From contig QPGO01000215.1 of NCBI GenBank assembly GCA_008632985.1, forward strand, positions 1 through 64,000: a DNA stretch of 64,000 nucleotides, written 5' to 3'. This document shows, one piece after another, positions 1 to 64,000 of the stretch (its first letter is position 1; the number at the start of each line of letters is the position of its first letter). Made by a program: the position numbers and the translations under genes. The DNA comes from Psammoneis japonica (taxonomy: Eukaryota). Below the pieces are notes generated by a model. It was not told where the DNA came from. It made no database searches and saw only the letters and a program-made list of their open reading frames with translations.

Positions 1-625
1 TTCGTGCACTCTGATGTGTGTGTTGTGCACAGCATCATCGCACAGCATTTGTCCAACTCTCCTCTCATCGCAGGATGGGTTGTTGCCATGTGGTGCATCT
101 GCACAGTGGACTTACGAATTTGACTGTGCACTCCATCTGTCAGGCAGGATGGGTTGGTGCCATGTGGCGCATCCGGCCAAGGGAGGAGTGGGTTCGAAGC
201 CCAGCCGCCCACCCCGGATGGGGTTGGAAAGGGGCAGGCGAGAAAGAAAAGGAGGCTTGGATTTGAGGCCGATTCGAGCCAGCGACCTCAGGAAGCGCAA
301 AGACTCACAACCACTCAGAATGCTGCACACTGCCCTGGCGAGTGCAGGAGGTTCTCAACAACCCAACAGGCAAAGAAGTTGCCACTCGGCTGGCTGTTGA
401 GTCCATTCTCCGTGCACACATTTGGGCGTGTGCTGTGCGCAGCATCGTCACACAGCATTTGTCCAACTCTCCCTCTCGTCGCAGGATGGGTTGTCACCAT
501 GTGGCACATCCACACGGAGGACTCACGAATTTGGCCATGCACTCCCCATGTTGGGCAGGATGGGCCAGCGCCATGTGGAGCATCCGGCCAAGGGAGGAGT
601 GGGCTTGAAGCCCAGCTGCCCACCT
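1..625 (+). repeat. ~410-bp GC-rich tandem unit (about 1.5 copies), part of composite repeat A
   Basis: The motif GTGYTGTGCRCAGCATCRTCRCACAGCATTTGTCCAACTCT recurs at ~19 and ~428. The same unit occurs at 2905, 4405, 15098, 23890 and 50384. Confidence 0.85.
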
Positions 626-1870
626 CAAGACATGTTTGTTTTCTCTGAAAAGACATGTTTGTTTTCCTTGAAACGACACGTTTGTTTTCCTTGAAACAAC
701 ATGTTTGTTTTCCTTGAAATGACATGTTTGTTTTCCTTGAAACGACATGTTTGTTTTTCTTCAAATGACATGTTTGTTTTCTTTGAAACCACGTGTTCGT
801 TTTCCTTGAAACTGCACGTTTGTTTTCCTTGAAAAGACATGTTTGTTTTCCTTGAAACAACATGTTTGTTTTCCTTTAAACGACATGTTTGTTTTCCTTG
901 AAACCACATGTTCGTTTTCCTTGAAATGACACGTTTGTTTTCCTTGAAAAGACCTGTTTGTTTTCTTTGAAACGACATGTTTGTTTTTTTTTGAAACGAC
1001 ATGTTTGTTTTCCTTGAAAAGACATGTTTGTTTTCCTTGAAAAAACATGTTTGTTTTCCCTGAAACGACACATTTGTTTTCCTTGAAAAGACATGTTTGT
1101 TTTCCCTGAAAAAACATGTTTGTTTTGCTTGAAAAGACATGTTTGTTTTCCTTGAAACAACATGTTTGTTTTCCCTGAAACGACATGTTTGGTTTCTTTG
1201 AAACCACATGTTTGTTTTTCTTGAAAACGCATGTTTGATTTCCTTGAAATGACATGTTTGTGTTCCTTGAAATGACATGTTTGTTTTCCTTGAAAAGACA
1301 TGTTTGTTTCTTGAAATGACATGTTTGTTTTCCCTGAAACGACATGTCTGTTTTCCTTGAAACCACATGTTTGTTTTCCTTGAAACGACATGTTTGTTTT
1401 CCTTGAAAAGACACATTTGTTTTCCTTGAAACCACATGTTTGTTTTCCTTGAAAAGACATGTTTGTTTTCCTTGAAACAACATGTTTGTTTTCCTTGAAA
1501 CGACATGTTTGTTTTCCTTGAAAAGACACATTTGTTTTCCTTGAAACGACACGTTTGTTTTCACTGAAAACACGTGTTTGTTTTCCTTGAAACGACATGT
1601 TTGTTTTCAAGACATGTTTGTTTTCCTTGAAAAAAAATGTTTGTTTTCCTTGAAATGACATGTTTGTTTTCATTGAAAAGACATGTTTGTTTTCCTTGAA
1701 AAGACACATTTGTTTTCCTTGAAACGACACATTTGTTTTCCTTGAAAAGACATGTTTGTTTTCCTTGAAATGGCACGTTTGTTTTCCTTGAAATGACACG
1801 TTTGTTTTCCTTAAAACCACATGTTTGTTTTTCTTGAAATGACACGTTTGTTTTATCTGAAAAGACATGT
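626..1870 (-). repeat. 23-bp satellite array (T-rich strand on +)
   Basis: Tandem CATGTTTGTTTTCCTTGAAANNN monomers. Confidence 0.97.
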
Positions 1871-1972
1871 TTGGCAAAAAACGGATTTGGAAAAAGTCAA
1901 TTGCGTCAAATGCACAAATTTCCAAATGACGGGAATCGAACCCGCGAGGAGCACCTGCAGCTGGAACAGGCC
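1871..1972 (-). mobile_element. Truncated MITE family 2 copy
   Basis: Ends in GAGCACCTGCAGCTGGAACAGGCC and is the reverse complement of 5932-6034. Confidence 0.75.
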
Positions 1973-3252
1973 TGCTGTGAAAAGATCAAGATGTCGTCTC
2001 CAGCACCGCTGGCAAAGAAGAGAAAAAAAAATGAGACTGTTGAGCCAATGAGCCCGAGACTTCAGGCAGTGTTGAAGAGAACGGGCAGGCAGGCAGCGCA
2101 TGGTGCGCTGAAACCAGAAGTGGAGAATGCGGCTGGAAATGATCTCTTTCCGCAGGTGAAGTTTCTCAGTCCGTCAGAGTTGGCAAGCAACGGGAGCGTC
2201 TCAATGTTTGTCAAGAAACAGATTGCTGGTGGCAACATGGACACTTCAAATTGGTCAGGAACTTGAGAGGAATGGGCAAAAAAGGCGGCAAAAAGGCAAG
2301 TTGACAATCTCAGAAACACGGTGTGCTCGGCTGTTGGGGCGGAGGCAATGGCCCGCAAGTTGGGTGACCAATGTGTGTGACTCAAGAGTTGTGCGCATCT
2401 CAAAAGAAGATGACGGTGATGCTTTGTCTGTGCAGGTGTTGTCACCAAGGAAGAGGGAAAGGAAAAAGAAAAGAAACTCAAGGCGGCAGTCAAGAGGAAA
2501 AAGCAAGGCAGGAAAAAGTCAAGCCGTGACAAGAATGAAAAGAAAGACATCCCGATTGTGCCGACATGGAATCTGCTTGGCCCAGACACTGTCGCCGGCA
2601 GCAAATGAAGGAACAAGCAGGCGTGCAAGTGGTTCTGTGATCACACCCCTGTTTGCAAAAATTGACAAACCAAGGATTGCGCGGCAATGCAACCATGGAT
2701 TGGCACATGGCAACAAGGTGGTGGCAGAAACGGCGATGTGGACACAGTGAAAAATGGCGCACATGATTCTCAACAAGTTGTCGTGACATTGGAGCAGCAA
2801 ACTTGCAACCAGAGGTTGGCCTGTCATTGTGCAACAACAATTTTTTGCAACATTTTGACAAATTGTCATCATGCAAATCCACACATTTTTAACATTTTTT
2901 GCACTCTGATGCGTGCGTTGTGCACAGCATCATCACACAGCATTTGCCCAACTCTCCCTCTCATCGCAGGATGGGTTGCCGCCATGTGGCGCATCTGCAC
3001 AGCGGACTTGCAAATTTGACCATGCACTCCCTCTGTCAGGCAGGATGGGTTGGTGCCATGTGGCGCATCCGGCCAAGGGAGGAGTGGGTTCGAAGCCCAG
3101 CCGCCCACCCCAGATGGGGTTGGAAAGGGGCAGGCCAAGAAAGAAAAGGAGGCTTCGATTTGAGGCCAATTCAAGCCAGCAACCTCAGGAAGTGCAGCAC
3201 ACATTCAGGCATGTGTTGTGGACAGCATCGTCGCACAGCATTTGTCCAACTG
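1973..3252 (+). repeat. Composite repeat A: degraded transposon accessory ORF plus ~410-bp unit
   Basis: Encodes EVENAAGNDLFPQVKFLSPSELASNGSVS, which is similar to the ORF at 57257-57541. Near-identical copies lie at 4408-5931(-), 15098-16822(-), 23226-24751(+) and 48520-51126(+). Confidence 0.8.
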
Positions 3253-6191: not shown

Positions 6192-6199
6192 AGCAACAA

Positions 6200-10551: not shown

Positions 10552-13157
10552 TGAACAAATGCTGATGTGCTGTCACAAACACAGGCAGTTTGTGTGCTGT
10601 TGGTGATTGGTTCACTGTTGCTTGATCAGTGGCCCCAATGGCGCAACATCTCACAATTCTAGAACCCGCTGATGCTGCTCAACACTCTGTCTTGTCTTGC
10701 ACCCAATTCTCAGCCATCATGGTGGCATTTGGTCACTTTGTCAGAGCCAGTGCGCTGTGATGTTCATCGCCTGGAACGGGCATTGCAAACGGTGTGACGG
10801 CATCGTTGCGATCAATTGATTTTTGTGGCAAGCACCATGTTGGTCCCATGGTTGCTCGTGCAATTGCTGAGTCCTTTGTGTGTGTCAACATTCATGGACA
10901 TGAACAACATGCTCTTGGAGACCAGAGCTGTGATCCGTCAGACATGACGTCATCACACAAAATGTTTGATCATGTGGATGGAACATGTCGGCTGAGACAC
11001 GCAAACATTTGTGACGAAGACAACACAATGATTTGTGCGCTGTCTGTCATTTGACCACACACATCTCATCAATCAAAGTGCATCATCAAATTGTTTGGAC
11101 GCTGCACATGTGGATGCATGTCTGTTGGACATTGTCGCTTGGGGGCAACACCGCCTGCTCATGGGTTCGCCAAGCAGAAACCGCCAAATCGGCACGAGAG
11201 CCATGCATTTTTCTCACTTTCCTCCACTCACACAAGTGGACGCTCACGCATCGAAACGCGAACAACTGCTGATGCGCCATGGCCGCTGCTGCAGCCTTTG
11301 CCGCCTGTCTTGCGTGTTGTGGGCACAGTGCACAGACGCGCACCCACATGGCCCGTCAAGGCTTCACTGCTGTCAAGGACCTGGAGCAGGTCCCTTTGAC
11401 TAAAATTGCCGACATGAAGAAGGGCACCATGAAAAGCGTGGGTGCCGCTGCCAGCCCTCAAGTCCGCTTTCCACACCTGGCGAATCGAAAGCTCAAGGCA
11501 CTGCACGCATGGATTGACTGCCGCAGAGCCCGGAGCCAACAGCCGGCCGCTGCTCTCTTCGCTGGCAATGTTGTTGGAACATGGGCGGCACGTCTGATGG
11601 AACTGGAGCAATTCAAGTCCGCCAACGTCTGGACGACAAGCTGGGGAACATGAGGAAGTCACCGCTGTGATGTTGGCTGCCACCTGTGCTGCCATTGACG
11701 AGGACCTCATTGCTGCCACCCGCCTTGCAGGCGCTCAGCATGCGCAGGACAGGCAATGACTGCATGATCTCCTGAAGAAGTCAGTGATGGGGGGGGCCGG
11801 GTGGGCTTTTGTCAAACCTTCCAATCGCAGCCGCGATGGTCGCACTGCTTTCTTTGCACTTGAGAGGCAGGCGGAAGGATCAGCCGCCGCCACCACCCAA
11901 AAGAACCGTGCTCATGCACAGATTGCTGCCGCAAAAGTGCACCGGACGGGGTCGATTTGCATTTGACCAGCACACTCAGCATCATCAAAAGGCTCACAAC
12001 GACTTGTCTGAGCTTGATGAACTGGTGGCCGAGACCAAGAAGGTCTCTGACTTTCTGAATGGCATCTCCGACCGGAGTGCTCTTGACGGTCCCGAGCGAG
12101 AGCAAGTCCAAAAGCTCCGCGATGCCAAGAAGGCCAAAAAGAAATGCAAAGCTGCTGCTGTGTCCTTGGAAGCTGAGTCGGTCGATGCCGAAACTCTCGC
12201 TGTAAAGAAAGCGGCTGATGCGCCGAAAGACTCCGACGAGCCTGATGAACCTGCCGCCAATGCAGGCACCCAGTTTGGATGCAGCGCACATGAGAAACCT
12301 CAGAATGAGGAATGAACAGTTGCGCCAGCACTGAAAGGCACAGAACCAAATGTCGCTAAACCTGCTGGCACTGTTTGTTTGTCTGGGTGATTCTCAAAGG
12401 ATGTGCGTGTCTCTTTGTCATCTGCTGGAAATTCAGATGACGAAGCCACCACTGATTTAGACTCGCACGCTGACACGTGTGCTGTTGGGTCCAATTTTGT
12501 GATGTGCTCTGACATTGACAGAACTGTCGTGGTGCACCCCCGCTCCGAAGAGCACGCACCAATGGAGAACACTCCTGTTTGCACGGCTGCTGCCGTGTGG
12601 GTTGATCCAACTGATGGACAACCGTGCTTGCTGCCAGTCCACGAGGCCATGTTTTTTGGGGACAAGATGACCAACACCCTTCTGTGCCCCAACCAACTGC
12701 GAGCAAATGGGCTGATTGTCCACGACACCCCTTGCCAGTTTGATCCGACTGGCGCGCACTCCATTGCTTTCCCTGACTTGAAGATCAGGGTGCCACTGCA
12801 AACAAGAGGCGTTGCTTCTGTCTTTGATTCACACAAAGCCAACAAATGAGGATCTGGAGAACCTCCCCCGGCTGGAACTCACATCACCCCCAAGATGGGA
12901 GCCTTCTGCTGGTGTCCACTCCATGCAGCCCCTGGCAGAACCTGGCCGAGGCATCCATTCGTGAGTTGAAGAAAAGAGTCCGTGTGACTCTGCACTGGAC
13001 TGGCGCTCACAGACGACTTTGGTCCCACAGCGCCAAATGGGCATGTGACATCCGACGCATGGTTGCAACCAGTGTGTCAGACATGGGAGGACGAGTCCCA
13101 GAAGAGGAGGTGACAGGTTCAACACCCGACATCTCTTCCCTCTCTCTCTTTGATTGG
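10552..13157 (+). mobile_element. Copia family B, 5' part (LTR 10552-10735, PBS, gag, protease, internally deleted integrase)
   Basis: TG...CA LTR followed by CTTTGTCAGAGCCAG. Gag-like ORFs, DSHADT protease motif, PWQNLAE integrase motif. Duplicate of 42079-45568 with deletions. Confidence 0.85.
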
Positions 13158-13398
13158 TGAAAACAAACATGTCTTTTCAAGGAAAACAAACATGTCGTTT
13201 CAAGGGGAAAAAAATGTCTTTTCAAGGAAAACAAACATGTCGTTTCAAGGAAAACAAACATGTGTTTTCAATTGAAACAAACATGTCATTTCAAGGAAAA
13301 CAAACATGTCATTTCAAAGAAAACAAACACGTCGTTTCAGGGAAAACAAGCGTGTCATTTCAAGGAAAACAAACGTGTCTTTTCAAGGAAAACAAACA
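13158..13398 (+). repeat. 23-bp satellite array
   Basis: Tandem monomers. Confidence 0.93.
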
Positions 13399-18415: not shown

Positions 18416-21400
18416 GAAAGACCCGATCTGAACCGTCCAATCTGGTGGCTGCTTGTTTTCTTCCTGACATTGTCGCAGAATGCCAGAATCGCGCAGGTGT
18501 CCGGATTGCAAAAGATTCCACATGTGCGAGCATCTCCCGTTGAAAACCTGTCTCCAACCAACGTCCAATTGAGCTCACCAAAGTTCCTTGCATCGACAGT
18601 CCACATTGTCAAAGCACGTCATTTCGTCATCAAACCAGGCTTGAAGCATGTCCAGGAGGAAGTCTCGGAGAGCAGGCACAGCGTCGATCTTGTTGCAGCA
18701 GCATCAAAGACCCTGCAGGAACTTCCTTCTCCACTGTTTGTTGTTTGGACACCAAAGCATGTGGTCCCTGTCTTCCATCGGATGCTCACATGTGATGCAT
18801 TGGTGCGGTCGAACTGGGTTGTGTTGATTTGCAATCTTGTCAGTTGGCAGCAAGTCATGGACCAGTTTGACTGTGTCAACATGCTGTTGTGAGTGACGTT
18901 TCACCAGAACCGCGTGAGCATTCCAGTCGACAAGGTCAACCACTGAAGGATCCCATTTGTTCCGTTCGACAACATGTTGCATCAATTCAGGAGCAGCAGC
19001 AGCGCACCGAATTTGTTTCTTGCAATTCGTCGTGATTGCACCCCCGTCGATCTCCAGATGCAAGTGGCAATGTGGCAGGTGCTTGACCTGATTCGTGTCG
19101 TGCAGGCAATGTCCTTGGCAAGCTCCTGCCAATTTGTCCGCTCGGATGTTAACTCTGGCATTTAACGGCAATGAGTGGACGGGAGATTGCCTGTCTTGAT
19201 GTCCTTTTGCCCATCGCACTGGAGGCAGAGCGAGATTGGCTGCATCCGACAGTTGCGTCAAAGCTTGCTGGGTGTGGAGGATCTCATTCAAAATGTCCCA
19301 ATCCAGAGCGACAGCGTTGGCCCCATGGCAGCGAATGTGAAAGTCATGTTGTTCGCATGCGTCGTTCTTGAGATCACTCACCGGCAGGATGGGAGTCAAT
19401 TCAGACAAACAGTCAACCAGTGCTTTGTCATCGCAATGAATCACTGCATCCAAAGGAACGGCAACGCGGCAGCATTCGCACAGCCGGCAGATGAATCTTG
19501 CAATGGATGGAATGCCGCAAGCTTCTGCGTGGTGAGAGGACGGAGTCTTCCCAAAAACTGGCCCTGCACAATCCACTGGTGGTGCACCATCCATGGCAAT
19601 GGTCCACCCAAAGGTGGCTCCTTCTTGGACCGATCCATCACTGCCTGCGGTGAGATGAGACGAAAGAAAGTGTCGAGCCACTGTTCGTGGAGAAACATGA
19701 AAGACCAAGTCTTCAAATGGCACAGATTCCCACTTGTCGAGTCCCTGAAGATGCGACAGAAAGGAATCTGGAGTGGTCGGAGAGTGGAAAGCGGTTGATG
19801 AAGTGCACGGGATCTCGAAATGGCAGACACCTCAACTGGACAAGAAGAATCGGAAGGATGTGGTGCAGTCTCCATCTCTCTGACAGAATCAGCGATGGTC
19901 CTGTTTGCTTGAAATGTGTCACAACCGGTTGGAGAGCGCACATGCAAGTGTTCCTTGGATGGAGAAAAGCACGCAGTTGACTGCACTCTCATCTGGGATG
20001 GTGGCAGAAGCCAATCTCCTGGGGGTTCCTTCAAGCGCAGTGACTTCGGATGGCACAGGGCTGAACAAAATTTCTTCCAGACTTTCCATGCTTGCTGGCA
20101 TGGCTTGCACTGCTCGATGTTGTTGAGTGCACCAACACTGCTCTGCAATGACGGTTCCCCTTGTGCTTTTGACCCATCCAGCGTCATTCCATCCGACAGA
20201 GCAACATCTGAAACAGACAAGACTTTCAGGTGCAGACGGCAACAGAAAAGATTTCCACTTCGATGTCATCGTGGTGAGGGCAGATGCATGGTTCGCCACA
20301 TTCAGTGAAGTCCCACTCGATGGTGTGGAAAGAACATTTTGGCAGTTCTGGTTTGTGCCCGGCCGCATCCAGTGGATCACACCACAACTGGTTGTCCGAT
20401 TGTAGAGATTGAGACAACTCGAAAGCAGAAGGCTGAGGGCTGGCTCTAAAGTCGTTCACTTGCTTGGAAGTGTCGTCGACATGTCCTCGGTTGAAAACTC
20501 AAATGCAAAACTGTCCGTCCGGGGTTTCGAAATGTGATCCGACAGCTTCTGCGTCAAAAACATCAAAGAGTCTGCTGCACAGAGTGTTCCAGTGCCAGGG
20601 AGAATTTCCACTGCCTTGTCCTGTTCCACACAAAGGACACTCAGAGGAATGAGAACAACATCGTTGGGCGAGTCCCAGAAGAGTGCGCAACCAGTGGCGC
20701 GCGTGATGCAAAGTCGCCATGTTGACTTTGACTGCTCTTTTGTGCATGCCATTGCTCTTCGCACACAATCTGACAATTGCTGGAATGTTCCTGTTGTGGC
20801 AAGAAGTGCAATCGTCGTCGCTGGTTGGCGAAGTCTTCCTGGATGCGCGTGAAATCTCCATCATTGGATTTTCAAGAAACACTGGTGTTTGAGCGGAGAG
20901 GAATGATCTGCATCCGTAGATCCCTGGGTTGCACACGCGACAGTGCTCCACATGTTGAGCCAACTCTTGCCACTTGACGCTTGCAATCAATTGGAAATCT
21001 GCCTCGTAAACATGAATCACTTGCAATCTGTGAATCTTGTTGTTGCCTGGTTCTTTGAAAATCATCACATTCACAATGTCTTTCCACCGTTCGTATGAGC
21101 AGCCCCACTTCAGAGTGCAATTGATCAAGTTGAGCCGCATTGCCACAAGAGTCTGTTGAGCCGAATCCAGCAGTTCTTTCTGCTTGGATGGATTCCCGTC
21201 GTCGTCGTAATCAGATGCATGAGAATGAGGAGCATGCACAGCTTTCCAATGCCCCAAATGAATCCCCGATTTCAATGATGCAGAGGTGGATTCAGACCAC
21301 AATGCAATCTTTGACCGCAGGGCTTCAGGAGAAAGGGCGCCAGGAACTGCTGGGGGTGTGTTGTCGTCGGAGATGCTGGATCAGCAATGATGCAGCCCGG

Positions 21401-22060
21401 CTCAGTTGTTCCGTTTTGCACTCACTGTCTGAGATCAGGTCAGCCATGATGGCATCTCCTTCACATCCGAGATCCACTGACAAGACAGGAACCGTGGGAG
21501 GAGTTCCATGTGCCTGCCCGAAATGGCGTTGATTGCGGTGCTGAAGTGCAGATTCGACGTCGTCTGGAGCGTCTGTCGTCGTCCAATTCTCACATGTCTT
21601 TGGATCATCTCGAGGATCTGCTGGAATTTGAACAGTTTGCACGCTGGAGTCTTCTGACTTTTTGCACGCGTTGATTTTCCAAAAGACTCATTTGGTTTCT
21701 TCGGCGCAGCGTTGGTTTCGTAGCATTCGGGCTTTCGCCTTCGACTGTTTCGTGCATTCTGGCTCGAGTTCTGCGATCCGTGCATCTCTTTCTTCTTCAC
21801 GGTGTTTCTGACTCTCTCGCGCAACTTCAGCGGCAATCTCAATGAACTCTGACGCAAGAAAAGAACATGAGCCAGTGCGCATGCAGAGGTTTGGGTGTTG
21901 AGCAACAAATGACAACGGAAGAGACAGCAACGCAACTTGCTTTGATGCTGAAAACAAGCTCACCTGCATCTCTTCCGCGCCCCCCTTCTGCAATTCAAAG
22001 CACATTCACAGCTGCAATGTCTCAAACAGCGGCGACAACAGCAATGGCATGAACGTGGTC
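18416..22060 (-). mobile_element. Degraded non-LTR retrotransposon (LINE) with RT, RNase H and a C-terminal Cys/His motif
   Basis: RT: SGIHLGHWK, MIFKEPGNNKIHRLQVIHVYEAD, GTGQGSGNSP. RNase H: SDGSV, AEACG, HCD, WAKGHQD, NIRADKLA. C-terminal CITC...EDRDHMLWC. Frameshifted; boundaries approximate. Confidence 0.85.
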
Positions 22061-26208: not shown

Positions 26209-26446
26209 CGAAAGAAATCCGATGTGTTGGATTTAGTTAGAGTGCTGTTGTTAGAGTGCTGTTGGCAACGGCTGGTGCTGAGCCAACCGTTGTGACGTGT
26301 TGTCGGAGGGAAGCGTTGGATTTCCCTCCAATGGCGCTCACTTGTTACGAGCAGTTGCAACAGGCCTGAGAGCATCTTTGGATCGTTGGATTGTTGTCAT
26401 GCCAGCACTGTGAGCAGCTGAGCCATTCGGCAGCTGGATTTGCTCG
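26209..26446 (+). repeat. 5' LTR
   Basis: Direct repeat of 32635-32872. Confidence 0.93.
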
Positions 26447-26461: not shown

Positions 26462-26751
26462 TGTCCGCACTCCGCGGTTTGGTGATGGAAAACGATGAAC
26501 AACGTGATTGTGACGGTCATGTCATGATGGCACGGTTTTGATGACGAATGCTGACCAACCTGAGGGTGTTCACCGTTGAGTGATGCCTTCGCATCAGTGT
26601 GCGCGCAAAGCAGTGGGAGACAAGGCCACATCACCGCACTCTCAAGGCCTGCGCGCATCGTCAACGCGATTTTGTGAACGTCAAAGTTTTGATGCACTTC
26701 TTCTGACACAACTGCTTTGTCTTGTGATGCTGTGATGAATCAGGTTTCACC

Positions 26752-28173: not shown

Positions 28174-28215
28174 CTCCTGAGCTGGACCCTGTCATGTGGC
28201 CTCATCCAGTTTGCA

Positions 28216-35354: not shown

Positions 35355-37572
35355 TTCAAGACATGTTTGGTTTCCTTGAAAAGACACGCTTGTTTTCCCT
35401 GAAACCACATGTTTGGTTCCTTGAAAACACATGTTTGTTTTCATTGAAAAGACATGTTTGATTTCCTTGAAACAACAAGTTTGTTTTCCTTGAAAACACA
35501 TGTTTGTTTTCCTTGAAATGACACGTTTGTTTTCCTTGAAATGACATGTTTGTTTTCCTTAAAAAGACATGTTTGTTTTCCTTGAAACAACATGTTTGTT
35601 TTCCTTGAAACCACATGTTTGTTTTCCTTGAAATGACATGTTTGTTTTCCTTGAAATGACATGTTTGTTTTCATTGCAAAGACATGTTTGTTTTCTTTGA
35701 AACAAAATGTTTGTTTTCCTTGAAAAGACATGTTTGTTTTCATTGAAACCACAAGTTTGTTTTCATTGAAAAGACATGTTTGATTTCCTTGAAACAACAT
35801 GTTTGTTTTCCTTGAAAAGACACATTTGTTTCCCTTGAAACAACATGTTTGTTTTCCTTGAAATGGCACGTTTGTGTTCCTTGAAACGACATGTTTGTTT
35901 TCCTTGAAAACACACAATTGTTTTCCTTGAAACAACATGATTGTTTTCCTTGAAATGGCATGTTTTTTTCTTTGAAACGACGTGTTTATTTTCCTTGAAA
36001 TGACATGTTTGTTTTCCTTGAAAAGACATGTTTGTTTTCTTTGAAACCACATGTTTGTTTTCCTTGAAACCACATGTTTGTTTTCCTTGAAAAGACACAT
36101 TTGTTTTCTTTGAAACAACATGTTTGTTTTCCTTGAAATGGCATGTTTGTTTTCCTTGAAACGACATGTTTGTTTTCCTTGAAAACACACATTTGTTTTC
36201 CTTGAAACAACATGATTGTTTTCCTTGAAATGGCATGTTTGTTTCTTTGAAACGACGTGTTTGTTTTCCTTGAAACAACATGTTTGTTTTTCTTGAAAAG
36301 ACATGTTTGTTTTCCTTGAAACCACATGTTTGTTTTCCTTAAAATGACACATTTGTTTTCCTTGAAATGACATGTTTGTTTTCATCAAAAAGACATGTTT
36401 GTTTTCTTTGAAACGAAATGTTTGTTTTCCTTGAAAAGACATGTTTGTTTTCCTTGAAAAGACATGTTTGTTTTCCTTGAAACAACACGTTTGTTTTCCT
36501 TGAAACGACACGTTTGTTTTCCCTGAAACGACATGTTTGTTTTCCCTGAAAAGACACATTTGTTTTCCTTGAAAAAACACGTTTGTTTTCCTTGAAAACG
36601 CATGTTTGTTTTCCTTGAAACGACATGTTTGTTTTCAAGACATGTCTGTTTTCCTTGAAACGACATGTTTGTTTTTCTTGAAATGACACGTTTGTTTTCT
36701 CTGAAAAGACATGTTTGTTTTCCTTGAACGACATTTTTGTTTTCCTTGAAAAGACATGTTTGTTTTCCTTGAAAAGACATGTTTGTTTTCCTTGAAATGA
36801 CACGTTTGTTTTCCTTGAAACCACATGTTTGTTTTTCATGAAATGACACCTTGGTTTTCTCTGAAAAGATGTGTTTGTTTCCCTTGAAATGACACGTTTG
36901 TTTTTCTTGAAACGACATGTTTGTTTTCCTTGAAAAGATGTGTTTGTTTTCTTTGAAACAACATGTTTGTCTTTAAACGACATGTTTGTTTTCCCTGAAA
37001 CGACACGTTTGTTTTCCTTGAATGGACACATTTGTTTTCCTTGAAAAGACATGTTTGTTTTCTTTGAAACAACACGTTTGTTTTTCTTGAAACGACACAT
37101 TTGTTTTCTTTGAAAACACATGTTTGTTTTCTCTGAAACCACATGTTTGTTTTCCCTGAAACAACACATTTGTTTTCCTTGAAAAGACGTGTTGGTTTTC
37201 CTTGAAAAAACATGTTTGTTTTCCTTGAAAAGACATGTTTGTTTTCCTTGAAACGACACGTTTGTTTTCCTTGAAAAGACATGTTTGTTTTCCTTGAAAA
37301 GACATGCTTGTTTTCTTTGAAAAGACATGCTTGTTTTCCATGAAACGACATGTTTGCTTTCCTGGAAACCACACGTTTGTTTTCCTTGAAAACACACATT
37401 TGTTTTCCTTGAAACAACACGTTTGTTTTCCTTGAAAAGACATGTTTGTTTTCCTTGAAAAGACATGTTTGTTTTCCTTGAAACCATGTGTTTGTTTTCC
37501 TTGAAACCGCGCGTTTGTTTTCCTTGAAATGACACGTTTGTTTTCCTTGAAAAGACATGTTTGTTTTCTTTG
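35355..37572 (-). repeat. 23-bp satellite array
   Basis: Tandem monomers. Confidence 0.97.
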
Positions 37573-39095
37573 ACTTCAAATCCTTGAGAGGAACCCAGGA
37601 TGCAGTCCCATCCTTCCATTTGACTTGCAGGTCCCAGCCTGCAGTCGTCCTCCCAGGAGCAAGCCTGCCAGTCTTGGTCGTTGTGCACCCGTCATTGGCC
37701 GTTGCAGCACGTTGCAATGCACAGCTGCCAATGAGAGTTGATGCATCATGGCAACGTGCTGCAATTTAAATGTCACAAAGGTTGTGACAAAAACAACCTT
37801 TTGTCTGCATGCGTGCTGCATCATGAATTTTTGGCGGAGTGGTTCATTGCAACCATTGGGCAGGAGGCCAGGGGTTCGAAACCCTGAGTGGGAGTTGTCT
37901 GCAGCAACGTTGGTCACTGTCGAGTGTGCAAAACTCTGTGCAGTTCTTTGTGTTCCTTTGCGCACACCCACACTGTTCCGCCAAAACCGCGCAGTTTCAG
38001 TGCACGTCAGCAAAGAGCCGCGTGGACGCGTGACACATGGGGAGGAGTGCAGTGTGCAGCTGCTGACAAGAGCCAATGCATCACGGCGATGTGTTGCAAT
38101 TTAAATGTCACAAAGGTCATGATCTGGCGGGCATTCCCTTCAGAGTCGATCTGAGTGAATGGGTTCTCTGCAACTGTGTCAGCAGCATGGGAGTCGGTGG
38201 ATCCGTCAGGGAATTCCATGTCGCATGTCCTCAAGTCGTTCCCAGTGCCAACAGGAACCCCGTCACCATCTCACTTGTGCGCAATGACCCCATCATGAGT
38301 CAGCTCGCCTCCTCGTGGTGACATGACTTGAGCTGTGAGACATTCATCCAGCCCTTCCAGGGTGTGCTCATCAGCTTCCGGTTTGGAAGCGTCGGGTTCC
38401 ACAGGTTTAACGGCATCGTCCCATTTGTCCATGAAGTCGTCAGGGAGTTCAGGGAAGTCAGCACTGGCGCCCTTTTCCGTGATGCTGAGCCGTTTGATCA
38501 AAGCTTGATCGACCAATGCAAGATCCGTCTGGATCACCAGAGTTTTAAGGTCATCCTCTGGCGTGGCCCAGACATCCTTCCGAATGATGGGTTTGCCTGA
38601 TTCGGGCAAAACAATGATTGTCAGCTGCGCCAAGCCAATGGCCAGTGCACTTCTTTTTGTGTGGGAACTCCACCACAGGCACGCAGCAATGCACAGGTTG
38701 ACGCCAATCAAAGAGAGAGAGGGAAGAGATGTCGGGTGTTGAACCTGTCACCTCCTCTTCTGGGACTCATCCTCCCACATCTGACACACTGGCCGCAATC
38801 ATGCGTCGGATGTCACATGTCCATTTGGCGCTGTGGGGCCAAAGTCGTCTGTGAGCACCAGCCCGGCGCAGAGTCACATGGACTCTTTTCTTCAACTCAC
38901 AAATGGGTGCCTCGGCCAGGTTCTGCCAGGGGCTGCATGGGGTGGACACCTCCTGGTGCATCCTGCATTCCCTGCAGATCTCCTTGGTCTGGCCTTCCGC
39001 CATTTCCGGGGTGCCATCCGACACAAGGACCTGCGGTGCGCCAACGTCATGCACAAATGACATGACAGCATCTGGGTGGTCCTGTTTCCTCTTCC
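37573..39095 (-). pseudogene. Copia family B integrase-to-RT linker fragment
   Basis: SDGTPEM, PWQNLAE, EFPDG, GWDLQVKWKDGTASWVPLKDLK. Interrupted at ~37695-38118 by unrelated sequence containing a ~40-bp direct repeat. Confidence 0.8.
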
Positions 39096-42078: not shown

Positions 42079-45000
42079 TGAACAAATGCTGGTGTGCTGT
42101 CACAAACACAGGCAGTTTGTGTGCTGTTGGCGATTGGCTCACTGTTGCTTGATCAGTGGCCCCAATGGCGCAACATCTCACAATTCTAGAACCTGCTGAT
42201 GCTGCTCAACACTCTGTCTTGTCTTGCACCCAATTCTCAGCCATCATGGTGGCATTTGGTCACTTTGTCAGAGCCAGTGCGCTGTGATGTTCATCGCCTG
42301 GAACGGGCATTGCAAACGGTGTGACGGCATCATTGCGATCAATTGATTTTTGTGGCAAGTGCCATGTTGGTCCCATGGTTGCTCGTGCAATTGCTGAGTC
42401 CTTTGTGTGTGTCAACATTCATGGACATGAACAACATGCTCTTGGAGACCAGAGCTGTGATCCGTCAGACATGACGTCATCACACAAAATGTTTGATCAT
42501 GTGGATGGAACATGTCGGCTGAGACACGCAAACATTCGTGATGAAGACAACACAATGATTTGTGCGCTGTCTGTCATTTGACCACACACATCTCATCAAT
42601 CAAAGTGCATCATCAAATTGTTTGGACACTGCACATGTGGACGCATGTCTGTTGGACATTGTTGCTTGGGGGCAACACCGCCTGCTCATGGGTTCGCCAA
42701 GCAGAAACCGCCAAATCGGCACGAGAGCCATGCATTTTTCTCACTTTCCTCCACTCACACAAGTGGATGCTCGCGCATCGAAACGCAAACAACTGCTGAT
42801 GCGCCATGGCCGCTGCTGCGGCCTTTGCTGCCTGTCTTGCGCGTTGTGGGCACAGTGCACAGATGCGCACCCACATGGCCCGTCAAGGCTTCACTGCTGT
42901 CGAGGACCTGGAGCAGGTCCCTTTGACTGAAATTGCCAACATGACGAAGGGCACCATGAAAAGCGTGGGTGCTGCTGCCAGCCCTCAAGTCCGCTTTCCA
43001 CACCAGGCGAATCGAAAGCTCAAGGCACTGCACGCATGGATTGACTGCCGCAGAGCCCAGAACCAACAGCCGACTGCTGCTCTCTTCGCTGGCGACGTTG
43101 TTGGAACATGGGCGGCAAGTCTGATGGAACTGGAGCAATTCAAGTCCGCTGACTCGGACGACGAATTGGCTGCCAAAACGGCCGTGGAGCTCAAGAACCC
43201 ACACAGCTGGCCCACCTTCCAAGAGTTGCTGGAGACCGAACTGCGCCACCACCGCAGCACTGTCACCGGAGTTCCCCTCATCTGTCCAGCTGGGGAACAT
43301 GAGGAAGTCACCGCCGAGATGTTGGCTGCCACCTGCGCTGCCATTGATGAGGACCTCATTGCTGCCACCCGCCTTGCGGGCGCTCAGCATGTGCAGGACA
43401 GGCAACGACTGCATGATCTCCTGAAGAAGTCAGTGATGGGGGGGCCCGGATGGGCTTTTGTCAAACCTTCCAATCGCAGCCGCGATGGTCGCACTGCTTT
43501 CTTTGCACTTGAGAGGCAGGCGGAAGGATCAGCCGCCGCCACCACCCAAAAGAACCGTGCTCATGCACAGATTGCTGCCGCAAAGTGCACCGGATGGGGT
43601 CGATTTGCATTTGACCAGCACATTCAGCGTCATCAAAAGGCTCACAACGACTTGTCTGAGCTTGATGAACTGGTGGCCGAGACCAAGAAGGTCTCTGACT
43701 TTCTGAAGGGCATCTCCGACCAGAGTGCTCTTGACGGTCCCGAGTGAGAGCAAGTCCAAAAGCTCCGCGATGCCAAGAAGGCCAAAAAGAAATGCAAAGC
43801 TGCTGCTGTGTCCTTGGAAGCTGAGTCGGTCGATGCCAAAACTCTTGCTGTAAAGAAAGCGGCTGTTGCCGAGCCTGCTGCTCAACCTGCTGATGCACCG
43901 AAAGACTCCGACGAGCCTGATGAACCTGCCGCCAATGCAGGCACCCAGTTTGGATGCAGCGCACATGAGAAACCTCAGAATGAGGAATGAACAGTTGCGC
44001 CAGCACTGAAAGGCACAGAACCGAATGTCGCTAAACCTGCTGGCACTGTTTGTTTGTCTGGGTGATTCTCAAAGGATGTCCGTGCCTCTTTGTCATCTGC
44101 TGGAAATTCAGATGACGAAGCCACCACTGATTTAGACTCGCACGCTGACACGTGTGCTGTTGGGTCCAATTTTGTGATGTGCTCTGACATCGACAGAACT
44201 GTCGTGGTGCACCCCCACTCCGAAGAGCACGCACCAATGGAAAACACTCCTGTTTGCACGGCTGCTGCAGTGTGGGTTGATCCAACTGATGGACAACCGT
44301 GCTTGCTGCCAGTCCACGAGGCCATGTTTTTTGGGGACAAGATGACCAACACCCTTCTGTGCCCCAACCAACTGCGAGCAAATGGGCTGATTGTCCACGA
44401 CACCCCTTGCCAGTTTGATCCAACTGGCATGCACTCCACTGCTTTCCCTGACTTGAAGATCAGGGTGCCGCTGCGAACAAGAGGCGTTGCTTCTGTCTTT
44501 GATTCACACGAGCCAACAAATGAGGATCTGGAGAACCTCCCCCGGCTGGAACTCACATCACCCCCGAGATGGGAGCCTTCTGCTGATGCCATGGCGCAAA
44601 AGGAGGAAGCGCGCGCATGTGCCAGTGTGCGCCAAGGATCAGCAAAGTTGGGTGGATGGTCGACGACAATGAATGTGACCAGGTGTGTTGCTTCCATTCA
44701 TTCACACCAAATGTCCTGTCATGACGAGAGCGTCATTGTGGACACTGATGACAACAATTCATTGCATCACCGCATGGTTGCTCAGGTGAATGTCTCCCAC
44801 AACGACACCGAGGGAGACGGGCCACACAACCGGCATGACCTGGATGTCCACCTGGATTGTGCCGAGCGGAAACGGGTGCATGCACTGTCGACCTTGAGTC
44901 GCGCATCAACTGTCACGCCCAAGACACTCTCTAAAAGGTGGAACATTGGCCTGACGGCTGCTGAGAACACCATCAGAGTGATGACCCAGGCAGGGGTCCA

Positions 45001-45568
45001 CCATGTCTGCACACCATCCGAACGGAAAGTCCGGAAGAAAGCCCCTTGGCTCAAGTTCCCTGCTGTCAAGGGACGGCTCTACTCCGACCAGATGTTTTCA
45101 AAGGTCAAATCGACACATGGCAAGATGGGAGGAAGCGCACTTGCCAACGGAAGAGGGTGTGACAGGTTCCATCCTTGGAAGAGGAAGCAGGACCACCCAG
45201 ATGCCGTCATGTCATTTGTGCATGACGCTGGCACACCGCAGGTCCTTGTGTCGGATGGCGCGCCGGAAATGGTGGAAGGCCAGACCAAGGAGATCTGCAA
45301 GGAATGCAGGATGCACCAGGAGGTGTCCACTCCATGCAGCCCCTGGCAGAACCTGGCCGAGGCATCCATTCGTGAGTTGAAGAAAAGAGTCCGTGTGACT
45401 CTGCACTGGACTGGCGCTCACAGACGACTTTGGTCCCACAGCGCCAAATGGACATGTGACATCTGACGCATGGTTGCAACCAGTGTGTCAGACATGGGAG
45501 GACGAGTCCCAGAAGAGGAGGTGACAGGTTCAACACCCGACATCTCTTCCCTCTCTCTCTTTGATTGG
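42079..45568 (+). mobile_element. Copia family B, 5' half (LTR 42079-42262, PBS, gag ~42806-43990, pol 44090-45466), truncated by satellite
   Basis: TG...CA LTR, PBS CTTTGTCAGAGCCAG, GVPLIC gag motif, DSHADT, integrase D-D-E-like YSDQ / SDGA / NLAE. Confidence 0.88.
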
Positions 45569-45740
45569 TGAAAACAAACATGTCTTTTCAAGGAAAACAA
45601 ACATGTCGTTTCAAGGGGAAAAAAATGTCTTTTCAAGGAAAACAAACATGTCGTTTCAAGGAAAACAAACATGTGTTTTCAAGGAAAACAAACATGTCAT
45701 TTCAAGGAAAACAAACGTGTCTTTTCAAGGAAAACAAACA
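45569..45740 (+). repeat. 23-bp satellite array
   Basis: Tandem monomers. Confidence 0.9.
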
Positions 45741-59229: not shown

Positions 59230-59674
59230 TGGTGGAACTGACGGACGTGGAACAACGCGTGCCTTTTCACTGCGCGTGCAAGTTAAAGAATTGACAGTGA
59301 GTGGTGGTCACAAAATGTTCCAAAGACTGTGTTCCAACTTGCTCTTCCCTTTCCGTTGGCAATTTTTGCATTCTCATTTGTTGTGCAACACGAAAGTGTT
59401 CAATTGTCCCAACGCATTCTTTTGACAGGCAACTGTGAAAGCATTCATCAATGCAAAAAAATCAATGATCACCATTTTCGTGCCAATTTCGTGTCTTGTT
59501 TCCCGCCAACCCTCACAACACACATGCCGTCCACATGACCAAACCTCAGCCACAACCATTCGTGCAATCATTCTTGCCGATCCTTTGCTGTTTCTTTCCA
59601 CCAAAACACCACAATGGAAATGCCGCAGTCCGAAAACAAGGCTGAAGAAGCAATCACCTGTCCCTGTTGCCATC

Positions 59675-60072
59675 GACGCGTTCCAGACGCAGGTGGGAAT
59701 CCGTGTGACATTGGGCCCGTGGACTTCTGCGTGCGAGCTCTGCAGTGAAATTGTGCGGCAATTAAAATGTCAATGATCGCCAACAGAAAATGAGGCAATT
59801 TTGCGAACGCACAAACTCGCACATGATTGAAGCACATCATTTTTTACTTGGCCAGTTACATTCTTCAGACATTGAAGAATGTAACTGGCGCATCATTGTT
59901 TCTATAAATTTGTCATGTGTGAAACGTCTGGGGCTTCGCAAAACAGTGAGTCTGGACAATTTTTTTTAAATGTCACACGTAGAAATCTATGCACGAAACA
60001 TGCGACGGATGACAAAAATCATTGTTGTCACACGTCAGTGCTACGAGCTCCCACCTGGGGCTGGAACGCGTC
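59675..60072. mobile_element. MITE family 1-related, TSD CATC
   Basis: CATC|GACGCGTTCCAGACGCAGGTGGGA ... CCCACCTGGGGCTGGAACGCGTC|CATC. Confidence 0.88.
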
Positions 60073-60348
60073 CATCGCTCCTTCCAGCGCATGCTTGGTC
60101 ACTTAAATTGCAATCCACAATGTCTCTCAGTTGCTTGCGAATTGTCCAACTTGGCGTCACAAGGTGCGCCGGGACCCAACTTGTCACCCGATGCTTGTGT
60201 CAAAGTGGTTGGAAGGCGGAGCAACTCTTGGAATGCAAATTTGCATTCAATGGCTTCTCGTGGACTCGATTCTTCCTCGTCATCCAACGACACCTCCACA
60301 CATGGATTGAGACGATCGAGATGAGGGGCCTCCATTTCCAATGCCTGC

Positions 60349-63300
60349 ATGGCTGGTTCCACACGTTCGTCCGAACCACCTTCTGACGCTCCATGGTCAC
60401 CAGCATTCGAAGACAACATGTCCCCTCTCTCCTCCATTTGCGGCCCTGATGACAGTCACTTCATGTCACTGGAGATGCTTTCAGATGAAAGCAGTGACAC
60501 AGAAGCAAACTCTTTTGCCATGCTGTCAGACGTCACCATGGATCTTCCAGACAGCAATGTAACGGATGACACGCAAGTGTCTCAAGGGAACATTTCCTCT
60601 CTGTTGGATGACAGCCGATTGGGCAACATCTACCAACACCCCGCCGAGGTGGCCTTTGCCGGCTTGTCGGCATTGAGCAACCTGAACGGGGCCTGTGTGG
60701 AGTTGAGCAAGCTCATGGATGACTGCAGAGTGCCGCTCCACCTTTGCGACGACATTGGGGGATTTGTCGAAAGACATTGCGGCACCACATTCAAGCTTGG
60801 GACCAAAACACCTTGTCGCAATGCACTGATGGAAACTCTTTCCAAATCGTTCCCCGGACCTCAACGAGAGATGATGCCGGTCAACCTGGAAACTCCAAGC
60901 GGCGAACGGGGTGAGAAAACTGCAATGGTTCCAAGATGGAACTTCCAAGAGGTTTGGGAATCACACATGCTTGACACTCACATGTGGGCTGAAAAAGGAA
61001 TCTTGCGGACACACACAATCCTTTTGGAGTGCACGTTGCCAAGGGCTCGGATGACAAATGCGTCTTGGCCGGAGAGTGGTGCAGGAGCACATGTTCGGCT
61101 AGAGTCAAGGACCCACTAAAACAGTTCTTGGAATGTTTGATGGTTTGTGTAGACAAGACAGGACAAACAGCTTTGATGGGATCTTCTTGCAGAGAACCAG
61201 TGATGGCAACCTCCGCGCATGTTGCCTTCAAACAGTGGCACAACAAAGCCAAGTGGAGAGTTCTTGGATGCATTCCCGACCTTAAAAAAATGTCTTCTTC
61301 CACAGCCAATCAGCAGTCCAATGCACGCAAGTCGGAAAAGGGCCAAAGTCTTCGTGAGTGCCACAAGGTTTTGAAAACCACACTTCAGCCTTTGCTTGAC
61401 GCAATGGAGCTGGGTGGCTTCAAATGTCATGTGCGACAAGGCGACGAGATCCATCACCTTCATGCACTTCCAACCATGATCCTAATCAATGGAGATGCAA
61501 AGAGCAGAGACTGCCTTGTGGGCAGGTGCGGCGCGAAGAATTGTCGCCAACGCTGCTCCCGTTTTTGCATGACGGGATGCAATGACCTTGACGACCCTTG
61601 GAAGGAGTTTGAGCTGGTGTGTGCTGGCGACTTGCTGCGAGTTCAGTGCATGGCCAATGATGAAAGTCTTGAAGACAAGGAGTGGAATCACTGGAGGGAA
61701 GAACTGCACTGCATGAAGCAACACAATGTTCCAACCAACAGTTTGCTGTCTGCAGACTTTGGCGAGCAACCATTCGGAGTGACTCTTTCCACGGCCAGCA
61801 ACATGATGCACTTGCATGAAAATGGCACTCTGAAAAGGGAGGTCCATGTGTTTGTAGACAGCATGGCTGCAAATGTGAGAAAGAAGGTGGGCGGACTGGT
61901 GGAAAAGATGTTCGGGAATCACCGATCCACATGCAGTTCCTCCTTTCTGCGCACCAATTTCAAAGGTGGGGCCACTTCACTCACCTTCTTAAACTCTCAT
62001 CACTGGGTGGGGATGGCCTTTGTCTTTTACCTTCTGTTGCTTGCAAAGGTGGGTTGCGAGGTCTGCGCATCCTGCTTCAGCGAAGAAGACGCGGAGGAAC
62101 CTTCACTTCCCTTGGGTTGCCGCATCCCAAAATTCAGAATGGACAGAATCTACATCCCTCAAGAATGCGATCTGGAGGATGATCACCAGGCAGCAGTTGA
62201 TCTAGACGACAGAGAAGACGCGGCAGCCAACAAATGCAACACTGACCATTCTGTGGAAAACAACGACAATGATTCAGACAACGAAGGAGAGGGCAAGGGC
62301 AAGAGAGCCAACAAAAAGAGAATCCCAATTAGATGCAGCATTCACCAGCATGCAAAGCTGCTCGAAGACATGCTTGCATTCCATGCATGGTGCAAGCTGG
62401 GCAACCCTCCTTCAGACAGAAACGACCTTCAAAAGATTGCAAAGAAAATTCGTTTGCTTGTTGCTCGCACAGTCCATTTCTCCCTCTTCTGCCGGCATGC
62501 CATGAGTTTCGATGCTGGTCTTGGCAAATCATTGTTGAAGGACTTTTTCAAATTGCCAGCCGCGGCGGATCAACAGCGGAGCTTTGATGTCTTCTTGGGT
62601 CAGGTGGCATCTCACATGGAAGACCAAATGATGGTTCACCGAGCCATCTCCGCCAATCCATGGATTGCAAACAAATCTGCTTGCAAAATGCTTGCGGTGG
62701 GCGATGCGGCCAATCACCATCTGGGTGGTTCCTCGCACGTGTTGAAGTGCAATGCTTTGAACAAGGCTGTTTTGTTCCTGTGGAAGGGAAAACAAAAGCA
62801 TTGTCAGGTGCACCCTGTTCTCCTCAAATTTGCAGGGAAAAAATGGAAGGAATGTGTTGGTGACAGAGAGAACCAGACAAAAAGCATTCTTTGCAAAACT
62901 GAGTGTTGCAACAAAAACGGAATCGACACTTGCCGCACGCACCCAGACCATGACAGTGAAGGCGCCATTCATGACTGGGCAAATGCAAACTTTGGAACTC
63001 GGCGTGGTGATTTGTTCTTCCCTTCACGACTTCATTCTTTCTTTCAAAGAATTGGCGACGGTGAGTCATTTGCAATTGTGCATCCTTGTGCTTGCCAGGC
63101 GGACAAGCGCACCATGGTGGAACGCACGCAACACACTGACCTTGTCAGTCGATGGCAATTGGATCAAGTGAAAAACCAAGAGTTGTCCACACGCAAAAAA
63201 GCCGTGTGTGCTCCAAAGCTGCACTTGGTTCCAATCAAGGCTGTTGGTGAAAAATTGCAGGTGTGCGAGGAACAACTGGGAATCACAGAGTCACACGAGA

Positions 63301-63371
63301 AGACAAAGCACGTTTGGGCAGTTCAAGACAGGAGAAAAACATGGGCGGCCAAGTTTCACAATGGCGGTTGA
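60349..63371 (+). pseudogene. Plavaka-like (CACTA-related) transposase, frameshifted near 61000
   Basis: Motif series recognised from memory: CVDKTG, EPVM, WRVLGCIP, HKVL, INGDAKSRDCLVGR, MHLHENG, CRTHPDH...DWA. Confidence 0.65.
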
Positions 63372-64000
63372 TGGGCATTGTTGATGGTTGGCAACTGCAA
63401 ACAGTGCTTTGCATTTCAAAAAAGCATCAGAGCATGCCATTGTTGGAACACACGCAATTTCGGAAACAGACGACAAAACCCTCAGCATTCACCCAATTCA
63501 TGCAGTTGACAAGGCCACAAGAATTGAAGGAGTCAGCTTCATTCGTCGATGTGCGGGTCCAGAAACCACCGGGGCCACGGGTCAAGGCAGGTCTGTCAAT
63601 TTGGCACGCTTCTTTTGAAAGAAAAAAACTTCCATGGATTTTTCGGATCGCAACTCTCAACTTCTCTTGTGAAGTCTAAGACCTTGTCCCTTTCTGTTTC
63701 TGGAAGTGTTTCCCAAATTTCCTGTTCCGTGACTCCCAAATGCATGGCTTCCTGGTCGGATGGTTTTCCCAGCCAATCCCCCCTGTCTTGTTCTGTGATT
63801 TTGAGCAACGTTTGGCATGTCGTAATTTCGTCCAACGCCGTTTCGTGAGTCATCAATTGAGTCAGTGCGCATTCTTCTATGTGCTCCAAGTTGCGCACGA
63901 CTTGTGAGAGGGACCACAGGTTGCATGGGACTGTGATGCGACACCTTTCAAACTTGGTTTGCAACAAGGACAGCATCATCTCTTTTGGGTTTTCGTGGAA

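Follow-up and report, generated by a model that had tools for sequence, protein, structure and literature searches.

The 64-kb stretch of DNA analyzed here over its whole length (1..64000; the window in what follows) is a mosaic of repeats in which the dinucleotide TpA has been lost almost completely and TpG and CpA have been gained, as seen in dinucleotide observed-to-expected ratios (o/e) and in 1-kb windows. The observation is genuine and extreme. We think it probable that the window is a saturated instance of a barely known kind of DNA hypermutation that is directed at TpA and operates in silent, repeat-rich chromatin. To our knowledge, hardly any natural case of programmed or targeted A:T>G:C hypermutation in chromosomal DNA has been described; the genome-defense mutators that are well established, i.e., repeat-induced point mutation (RIP) and APOBEC, are cytosine-directed. 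The window would represent an end state: ~95% of the expected TpA is gone over 64 kb, frames are open, and nearly all Tyr codons have been replaced.

TpA occurs 212 times in the window versus 4,447 expected, for an o/e of 0.05 and a frequency of 0.0034 (212 per ~62,500 dinucleotides). TpG (6,331; o/e 1.60) and CpA (5,812; o/e 1.59) are in surplus, and CpG (2,223) has an o/e of 0.67. The TpA shortfall is 4,235, the CpG shortfall is 1,177, and the combined TpG and CpA surplus is 4,360. The loss of ~95% is specific in that ApA/TpT is enriched, with an o/e of 1.47. It is also continuous: TpA o/e is 0.13 or less in 32 of 32 bins of 2 kb, and Rho_TpA is 0.20 or less in all 62 scorable 1-kb windows. 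The TpA o/e is 0.083 in a copia element, 0.042 in a long interspersed element (LINE), 0.073 in a Plavaka-type transposase open reading frame (ORF), 0.033 in a second copia-like element, 0.025 in the 19 arrays of a 23-bp satellite, and 0.013 in a dispersed repeat family, F1. Thus, two statements of a preliminary description of this DNA hold up, namely that TpA is nearly absent across long terminal repeat (LTR), LINE, DNA transposon and satellite sequences (o/e 0.025–0.083 by class), and that CpG is still common (o/e 0.67). The stop triplets of the + strand follow suit, with 100 TAA, 52 TAG and 1,552 TGA. Because TAA and TAG are so scarce, the window has 65 frames that run from stop to stop over 200 codons or more, many of them overlapping across both strands and most of them meaningless.

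The direction of the change was read from intact relatives. The copia pol frame (28174..32466, + strand; protease, integrase, reverse transcriptase (RT) and RNase H; RVT_2 E 8e-14) has an assembly gap at 29339-29856, and its product is 57–65% identical to intact metagenome relatives of ~1,400 residues. An alignment with 40 of the 120 relatives listed yields 582 columns with conservation of 80% or more, and the window Pol departs from them at 97. Conserved Tyr columns are altered in 22 of 25 cases, giving 13 Cys (TGY, where Y is a pyrimidine), 7 His (CAY) and 2 Leu (CTC), and the non-Tyr residues are altered in 4–36% of their conserved columns. Conversion of TpA to TpG or CpA suffices by itself to explain 43 of the 97 changes. 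These 43 include seven of eight Thr>Ala, all four Asn>Asp, all three Ile>Val and both Ser>Gly changes, with a T preceding each. The DNA of the relatives has a TpA o/e of 0.50–0.82 (24 loci of at least 3 kb among 46 fetched) versus 0.083 for the window copia.

The other two transposon classes behave likewise. A frameshifted non-LTR (LINE) remnant, located by tblastn of ~1,960-residue relatives, lies at 18425..21963 on the - strand; of 51 Tyr aligned from the relative P0121, the window reads Cys at 15, His at 8 and Tyr at 3. The Plavaka-family transposase-like frame (60993..63368, + strand; 792 codons, 2 Tyr), recognized through its Plavaka relatives, was aligned with two of them. The 18 aligned Tyr of P0133 correspond to 7 Cys, 3 His and 1 Tyr, and the 27 of P0134 to 9 Cys, 5 His and 1 Tyr. 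Since the relatives have Tyr and normal TpA, the ancestral state was TA and the direction of change is TA>TG or TA>CA. That is, alignments of the predicted products show a TA>TG/CA polarity in three transposon classes.

These comparisons bear on further claims of the preliminary description. Its expectation that TAY becomes TGY or CAY is borne out by Cys or His in 20 of the 25 conserved copia Tyr columns, and likewise in the LINE and the Plavaka ORF. Its counts were accurate: in the gag-like frame (26728..28173, + strand; called gag by position only, with no Pfam match) TpA is found only at 27753 and 27876, with no Tyr over 482 codons, and the sequenced parts of Pol hold 1 plus 3, i.e., 4 Tyr. 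It had also read nine Pol motifs as carrying Cys or His in place of an established Tyr. All nine (ACSSVV, NACL, GHKPE, CCQ, FACL, DFC, IWCSK, LRHKL and IACH) are in the window Pol, and the three closest intact relatives all have the Tyr in TYSSVV, NAYL, GY(K/R)PE, FGYL, DFY, LRYKL and IAYH. The remaining two sites are variable among these relatives: one reads HYQ, QYQ or YYQ, and the other is IWYSK in one relative and IWHSK in two.

In three old copia fragments (6240-6533, 12454-12810 and 16829-17614), a few Tyr of the relatives are aligned with Arg (CGY), which needs both bases of TA to have changed. These sites might reflect a slow second step from TpG or CpA to CpG, but the alignments (22–35% identity) are too weak to rely on.

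When and on what substrate the change occurred is told by the copia LTRs. The 5′ LTR (26209..26445, + strand; 237 bp by self-BLAST) is 92.4% identical to the 3′ LTR (32635..32871, + strand, also by self-BLAST). Both LTRs of an element come from a single template and start out identical at integration. In this pair, 18 of 237 positions now differ, of which 14 form 7 CA/TG doubles, 1 is CG/TG and 3 are of other kinds. Since the LTRs began identical, the 7 CA/TG doubles mean that mutation followed integration, in the chromosome, and could strike either strand. A CpG origin of the doubles is disfavored, because sites changed in a single LTR should then far outnumber the double sites. Each LTR retains 4 TpA, at identical places in both (TTAG three times, TTAC once), which marks them as resistant survivors rather than new mutations. 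If TpA mutation was saturating and chose its strand at random, half of ~14 lost TpA are expected to appear as CA/TG, and 7 are observed. A loss of ~14 per LTR is in turn close to the TpA density of the relatives, 4.6% (8,166 in 175,842 bp).

The sense strand of copia pol likewise shows both outcomes, 13 TGY and 7 CAY. By a rough hand estimate, TpA survival in copia is 0.083/0.665, or ~0.125, corresponding to ~2 hits per site. With 3/237 for the LTR pair taken as background, the same rough estimate would put the TpA rate in the copia element a few hundred-fold over it. Editing of RNA or cDNA is excluded by the LTR pair and again by the DNA transposon and the satellite, in which depletion is just as deep; the process is therefore not limited to retroelements. 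To summarize, the process acted in situ, in DNA, after integration, and on both strands. The preliminary description was therefore right to place it on chromosomal DNA, given an LTR pair that diverged after integration and a DNA transposon and satellite that are affected too.

The surviving TpA dinucleotides are a biased set. With 46 loci of copia relatives as proxy for the ancestral contexts, RTAY (R, purine) makes up 31% of the relatives' TpA versus 5 of the 212 survivors, and YTAR 18% versus 109 of 212 (context chi-square p 2e-56). The share of TTAA rises from 5% in the relatives to 27% of survivors. Outside the satellites, RTAY accounts for 4 of 159 survivors (p 3e-28). ATAT does not survive at all in the window, and GTAC survives once. 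The process is thus context-sensitive: RTAY is essentially gone, and YTAR, especially TTAA, survives best. An additive per-strand model of the 3′ neighbor was tried and misfits, as the depletion of GTAC far exceeds that of CTAC/GTAG or GTAA/TTAC; the RTAY/YTAR division fits better. That the preferred sites form a palindromic class suggests that the process recognizes duplex DNA.

A second process is apparent in the same DNA. Ordinary decay of CpG to TpG or CpA, as expected of 5-methylcytosine, overlays the TpA loss and, judging from the alignments of copies, is behind most differences between the younger duplicates. Counted from 52 partly redundant BLAST pairs, copy-versus-copy differences are C(A/G) in 338 cases and (C/T)G in 374, versus T(A/G) in 15 and (C/T)A in 11; that is, CpG accounts for 712 of the 1,026 transitions at single sites that distinguish the copies. 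Copies of the second copia-like element show 47 CG/TG or CG/CA columns versus 2 CA/TG and 1 TA/TG. The CpG type of these differences implies that TpA loss in those families predates their duplication. Multi-copy alignments contain three-state CA/CG/TG columns, 9 in F1 and 12 in a companion family, F2. For this reason, 191 CA/TG doubles found between copies were rejected as proof of TpA ancestry, since many of them prove to be CpG-derived. CpG decay as the sole source of the TpG and CpA surplus was rejected as well, with a CpG shortfall of 1,177 set against a surplus of 4,360 and a TpA shortfall of 4,235.

Evidence on locality and on the consensus comes from the contigs of one sample's DNA run, X1; two further runs, X2 and X3, contributed none. 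Among the 40 differences listed of 159, the contigs read TA at 55963, 57130, 59380 and 59721, all of them CA or TG sites of the window. The last of these lies in an element resembling a miniature inverted-repeat transposable element (MITE-like; 59669..60078, strand not assigned), whose terminal inverted repeats agree at 26 of 32 positions. At 59721 the window reads TG, and 200,523 of 215,346 depth units read TA. The summed X1 depth of the MITE-like family is 44,000–87,000 versus ~44–98 for the low-depth contigs listed. Depletion is weaker in this copy than anywhere else in the window (TpA o/e 0.34; CpG o/e 1.14), and the copy departs from most of its family at just two listed sites, by one TA>TG and one CG>TG. 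It looks like the youngest insert and could be usable as a clock of the process. Retention of TA in other genomic copies is a hint that the action is local rather than genome-wide. As to the consensus, an X1 contig of 2,595 bases and depth 53.5 agrees with 53365-55958 except for 1 different letter and 1 gap. This match supports the window consensus, with the caveat that run X1 may be the assembly's own source.

We propose the following model. The window would be a block of silent, repeat-rich chromatin composed of the 23-bp satellite, copia, LINE, Plavaka-type transposon, MITE-like and unclassified repeats. After these elements arrived, TpA was converted in place to TpG or CpA, on either strand, almost to saturation. 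The agent may be a DNA adenine deaminase acting at TpA, the resulting hypoxanthine then pairing with C, and it may be directed to silenced or foreign chromatin. The process would be of the same kind as de novo events in Bigelowiella natans, which are considered below. Its consequences are unlike those of RIP: no new stops are made, TAA and TAG are removed, and long frames stay open. Tyr becomes Cys or His, other residues are altered where TpA lies within or across codons, and signals containing TA are lost.

Several points weigh against this model. TpA reads the same on both strands, and A>G is therefore inseparable from T>C. Direct evidence of in-place action is confined to the copia LTR pair, with a hint from the MITE-like element. 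Most repeat-copy differences in the window are of the CpG type, and CA/TG doubles can arise from CpG too, so that the 191 between copies are not diagnostic alone. The context bias is measured against an ancestral distribution proxied from copia relatives alone; satellite monomers have TG in 643 cases versus TA in 23 at one position, and part of the surviving satellite TTAA may be new G>A changes. No single-copy gene was found in the 64 kb, nor any stretch of normal TpA to serve as internal control. The read support consists of contigs from a single sample, not raw reads.

A bolder extension of the model can be offered only tentatively, and we consider it rather less probable than its failure. 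It holds jointly that the agent is a double-stranded DNA (dsDNA) adenine editor acting at RTAY and guided by chromatin, that it provides a RIP-like defense free of stop codons, that it occurs in more than one protist lineage, and that the window is not from B. natans. As part of the same joint proposal, such an editor might rid transposons, satellites and integrated viruses of their Tyr codons and of signals that contain TA.

Three of 282 proteins fetched, the Plavaka-family products P0200, P0223 and P0184 of public contigs, have ~0.1% Tyr and read Cys or His where normal relatives have Tyr. For P0223 against P0245, the 27 aligned Tyr correspond to 11 Cys, 11 His and 1 Tyr. The three are at most 48% identical to one another and to their closest fetched relatives. 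Such Tyr-free Plavaka proteins indicate that the footprint is present in other elements or genomes, where it can be mined by screening for Tyr-free transposases. They point the same way as the extended proposal, in favor of spread beyond one protist lineage.

The alternative that survives best, though we regard it as unlikely, is that the same signature was written by another chemistry. That is, T would be changed to C, or adenine would first be modified, through thymine hypermodification or an N6-methyladenine (6mA)-type mark, with the transitions arising as a by-product of an epigenetic mark. As TpA is palindromic, every result above fits a T-centered change equally. The favored RTAY is a 4-bp palindrome class, and a palindrome preference is expected of a dsDNA reader or writer such as a DNA methyltransferase. 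CpG decay in the same DNA adds that this chromatin is probably modified. Against this stand two points of background: the eukaryotic 6mA writers known to us act at ApT, not at TpA, and we know of no case in which 6mA or 5-hydroxymethyluracil is mutagenic at anything near such a rate.

Error-prone repair, which we judge very improbable, would account for the pattern as follows. Excision repair in methylated heterochromatin, e.g., of T:G mismatches from 5-methylcytosine deamination, would recruit a polymerase-eta-like enzyme that misinserts opposite T at WA (W, A or T). Polymerase eta does make A>G preferentially at WA, with TA favored, as in the A:T phase of somatic hypermutation, and CpG decay does co-occur in the same DNA. 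However, the loss is confined to TpA, and the palindromic RTAY preference is not the WA motif. WA mutagenesis of the polymerase eta type, which should give A>G at AA as well as at TA, was rejected on the o/e of 1.47 for ApA/TpT versus 0.05 for TpA.

Fainter still is the chance that no targeting is involved and that the pattern reflects genome-wide composition or an artefact of sequencing or assembly. All parts of the window are depleted, as such an account would have it. Yet the organism needs Tyr codons, the ancestors of these elements had them, and other genomic copies keep TA at the four sites listed above. The contigs of the DNA run reproduce the consensus, and the changes obey codon logic and differ between the LTRs, which basecalling error would not do.

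The weakest alternative, which we discount almost wholly, is editing before integration, i.e., ADAR-like A-to-I conversion of retroelement RNA or a deaminase acting on cDNA: retroelements are the best-documented targets of editing enzymes, and ADARs favor a U 5′ of the edited A (according to the discussion in the preprint bioRxiv 10.64898/2026.01.13.699255), but LTRs made from one template differ at 7 TpA-derived CA/TG sites, both strands are affected (13 TGY versus 7 CAY on the sense strand), and the DNA transposon, the satellite and non-coding repeats are just as depleted, on which grounds ADAR-type RNA hyperediting was rejected.

The remaining content of the window is as follows. The 23-bp satellite occupies ~17.4 kb in 19 arrays, defined by Tandem Repeats Finder (TRF) and self-BLAST; as an unmasked repeat search is swamped by the satellite, self-BLAST was done with the satellite masked. 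The largest array is at 32873..37573, and further arrays delimited by TRF are at 629-1873, 3262-4406, 6689-7214, 8591-10551, 24779-26208, 39095-40138, 46602-48189 and 51128-52348, together with smaller ones. Arrays are present in both orientations along the window. Among 690 monomers, positions 5-6 read TG in 521, CG in 94 and CA in 56, and position 23 varies among C, A and T. The copia element is embedded in a satellite array, with satellite on both flanks (26195-26215 and 32866-32886). Its LTRs as delimited are without terminal TG...CA; the flanking 5-mers agree at 4 of 5 positions.

The second, older copia-like element (42079..45569, + strand) has gag-like and protease–integrase frames and is matched at 44090-45568 by tblastn of the relatives P0001-P0003. 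A partial duplicate of it, in blocks 96–99% identical by self-BLAST, is at 10552..13158 on the + strand, and tblastn finds additional copia fragments beside these two copia-like elements. Within the LINE remnant, the ORF at 20502-21380 (- strand) matches ~1,960-residue proteins, for which precomputed annotation gives Exo_endo_phos in 5 of 12, zf-RVT in 2 of 12 and RVT_1 in 1 of 12. The Plavaka-like frame matches 610 library proteins at E ≤ 0.001. The Pfam family Plavaka is found at the same threshold in 5 of the 8 top relatives scanned, 4 of them over the curated cut-off. With RVT_2, the ~1,960-residue relatives, the Plavaka relatives and TRF, the preliminary naming of an LTR/copia element, a LINE, a DNA transposon and a satellite is confirmed.

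Dispersed repeat F1, which has no coding match, is present at 1874..3192 (+), 4712-6030 (-), 15683-16825 (-), 23226-24175 (+) and 48519-49566 (+), with 90–96% identity by self-BLAST. Taken together, copies of F1 and F2 (1-627, 1874-3192, 4407-6030, 15102-16825, 23226-24742 and 48519-51125) are 88–97% identical, differ mainly at CpG and always adjoin satellite. The pattern of these two families suggests that cytosines in the region are methylated and that the region has a higher-order structure built by segmental duplication. The right-hand 10 kb of the window is repeated many times in the genome, by summed contig depth of run X1. The segment 56001-60000 has the strongest strand skew of any 4-kb bin (GC skew -0.21, AT skew -0.19), and TG (378) and CA (397) are balanced there. 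No tRNA and no Rfam gene were found in the 64-kb window. Pfam matches to LbR_Ice_bind, CcmE and PAAR were rejected as genes, being translations of the satellite. The copia RT is the sole window ORF product recognized by Pfam; at E ≤ 0.001, the 128 non-satellite window ORFs outside it have no match to a Pfam family.

This last result illustrates a hazard for annotation. Long frames free of TAA and TAG will be called as genes, and their proteins are hard to recognize: none of the 128 ORFs has a Pfam match, though several lie inside transposons that were identified otherwise. The window also offers handles on mechanism, i.e., the timing given by the LTR pair together with action on both strands, the RTAY preference, and the co-occurring CpG decay, which links the process with chromatin that is methylated and silent. 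Identification of the responsible enzyme would yield a naturally occurring DNA adenine editor. If the window is from B. natans, it would be a further locus of a process just described there; if it is from another organism, it would extend that process to another lineage.

How the window compares with known systems is considered last. The closest is the process reported in the marine alga B. natans in a 2026 preprint by Mettrop et al. (bioRxiv 10.64898/2026.01.13.699255). In mutation-accumulation lines, 231 of 302 nuclear mutations fell in integrated regions of nucleocytoplasmic large DNA virus (NCLDV) and virophage origin, and 230 of the 231 were A>G or T>C, all at TpA. According to the same preprint, the rate was ~1000x background and was seen in some lines only; the main target was single-copy, and the lines were grown as cultures. 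The genome has 324 predicted coding sequences depleted in TpA (mean TpA frequency 0.0018), enriched for RT, endonuclease-RT and DDE, and 124 clusters of 1-kb windows poor in TpA and rich in CpA and TpG. The viral inserts themselves are mildly or not depleted (Rho_TpA 0.45; TpA 3.3% and 9.2% of dinucleotides). As candidate enzyme, the authors put forward a homologue of ADAT2.

As far as the preprint's account goes, the likeness is close: in both cases, change is A>G or T>C at TpA only, giving TpG and CpA, and falls on foreign or silent DNA, in the window by what may be a local action. The targets in B. natans are integrated foreign or selfish DNA, and those in the window are copia, LINE and Plavaka-type elements plus satellite and unclassified repeats. 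When the preprint's footprint cut-offs (0.43 at most for Rho_TpA, together with at least 1.52 for Rho_CpA+TpG, in consecutive 1-kb windows) are applied to the window, 62 of 62 1-kb windows pass for TpA and 50 of 62 pass both. The window is unlike the viral inserts in that its transposons and satellite are near-saturated over a length of 64 kb (o/e 0.05). The preliminary description had called the process undescribed, and here it must be corrected, as the preprint reports the same signature arising de novo. A literature search, with most subscription journals outside its reach, found no description besides this preprint. The preprint's main text nowhere uses the words satellite, LTR or trinucleotide, and relative to that text the LTR-pair timing, the RTAY/YTAR bias and the co-occurrence of CpG decay seem to be new.

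RIP of fungi is also a dinucleotide-keyed, DNA-level transition hypermutation of repeats that leaves a strong footprint. It differs in that its CpA>TpA change gains TpA and creates stops, whereas the window has lost TpA and had stops removed. RIP is set off by sequence duplication in a sexual phase; the main target in B. natans is single-copy. Fungal RIP, i.e., C>T at CpA, was rejected on a TpA o/e of 0.05 with CpA at 1.59 and TpG at 1.60, and on the polarity set by the intact relatives. The opposite polarity to RIP that the preliminary description had claimed, TA>TG/CA, is what those relatives give.

CpG decay by 5-methylcytosine deamination feeds TpG and CpA too and operates in this very DNA. 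Unlike the process in question, it cannot remove TpA, nor can it turn TAY into TGY or CAY, and the TpA shortfall is 3.6 times the CpG shortfall.

Editing of the ADAR or APOBEC type resembles the window in its deaminase-type transitions clustered in selfish elements and, for ADAR, by the preprint's discussion, in a preference for U or T 5′ of the A. Those enzymes act before integration, on RNA or single-stranded cDNA, and are strand-specific, in contrast to the post-integration changes on both strands seen here.

The last comparison is with TadA and ADAT2-ADAT3. Their natural substrate is tRNA A34 behind the invariant U33, i.e., a U-A step, and this step corresponds to TpA. TadA/ADAT enzymes are not known to prefer palindromic RTAY sites or to act on chromatin. 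DNA-active relatives of ADAT2, BjADAT2 and TbADAT2, are cited in the B. natans preprint (bioRxiv 10.64898/2026.01.13.699255).

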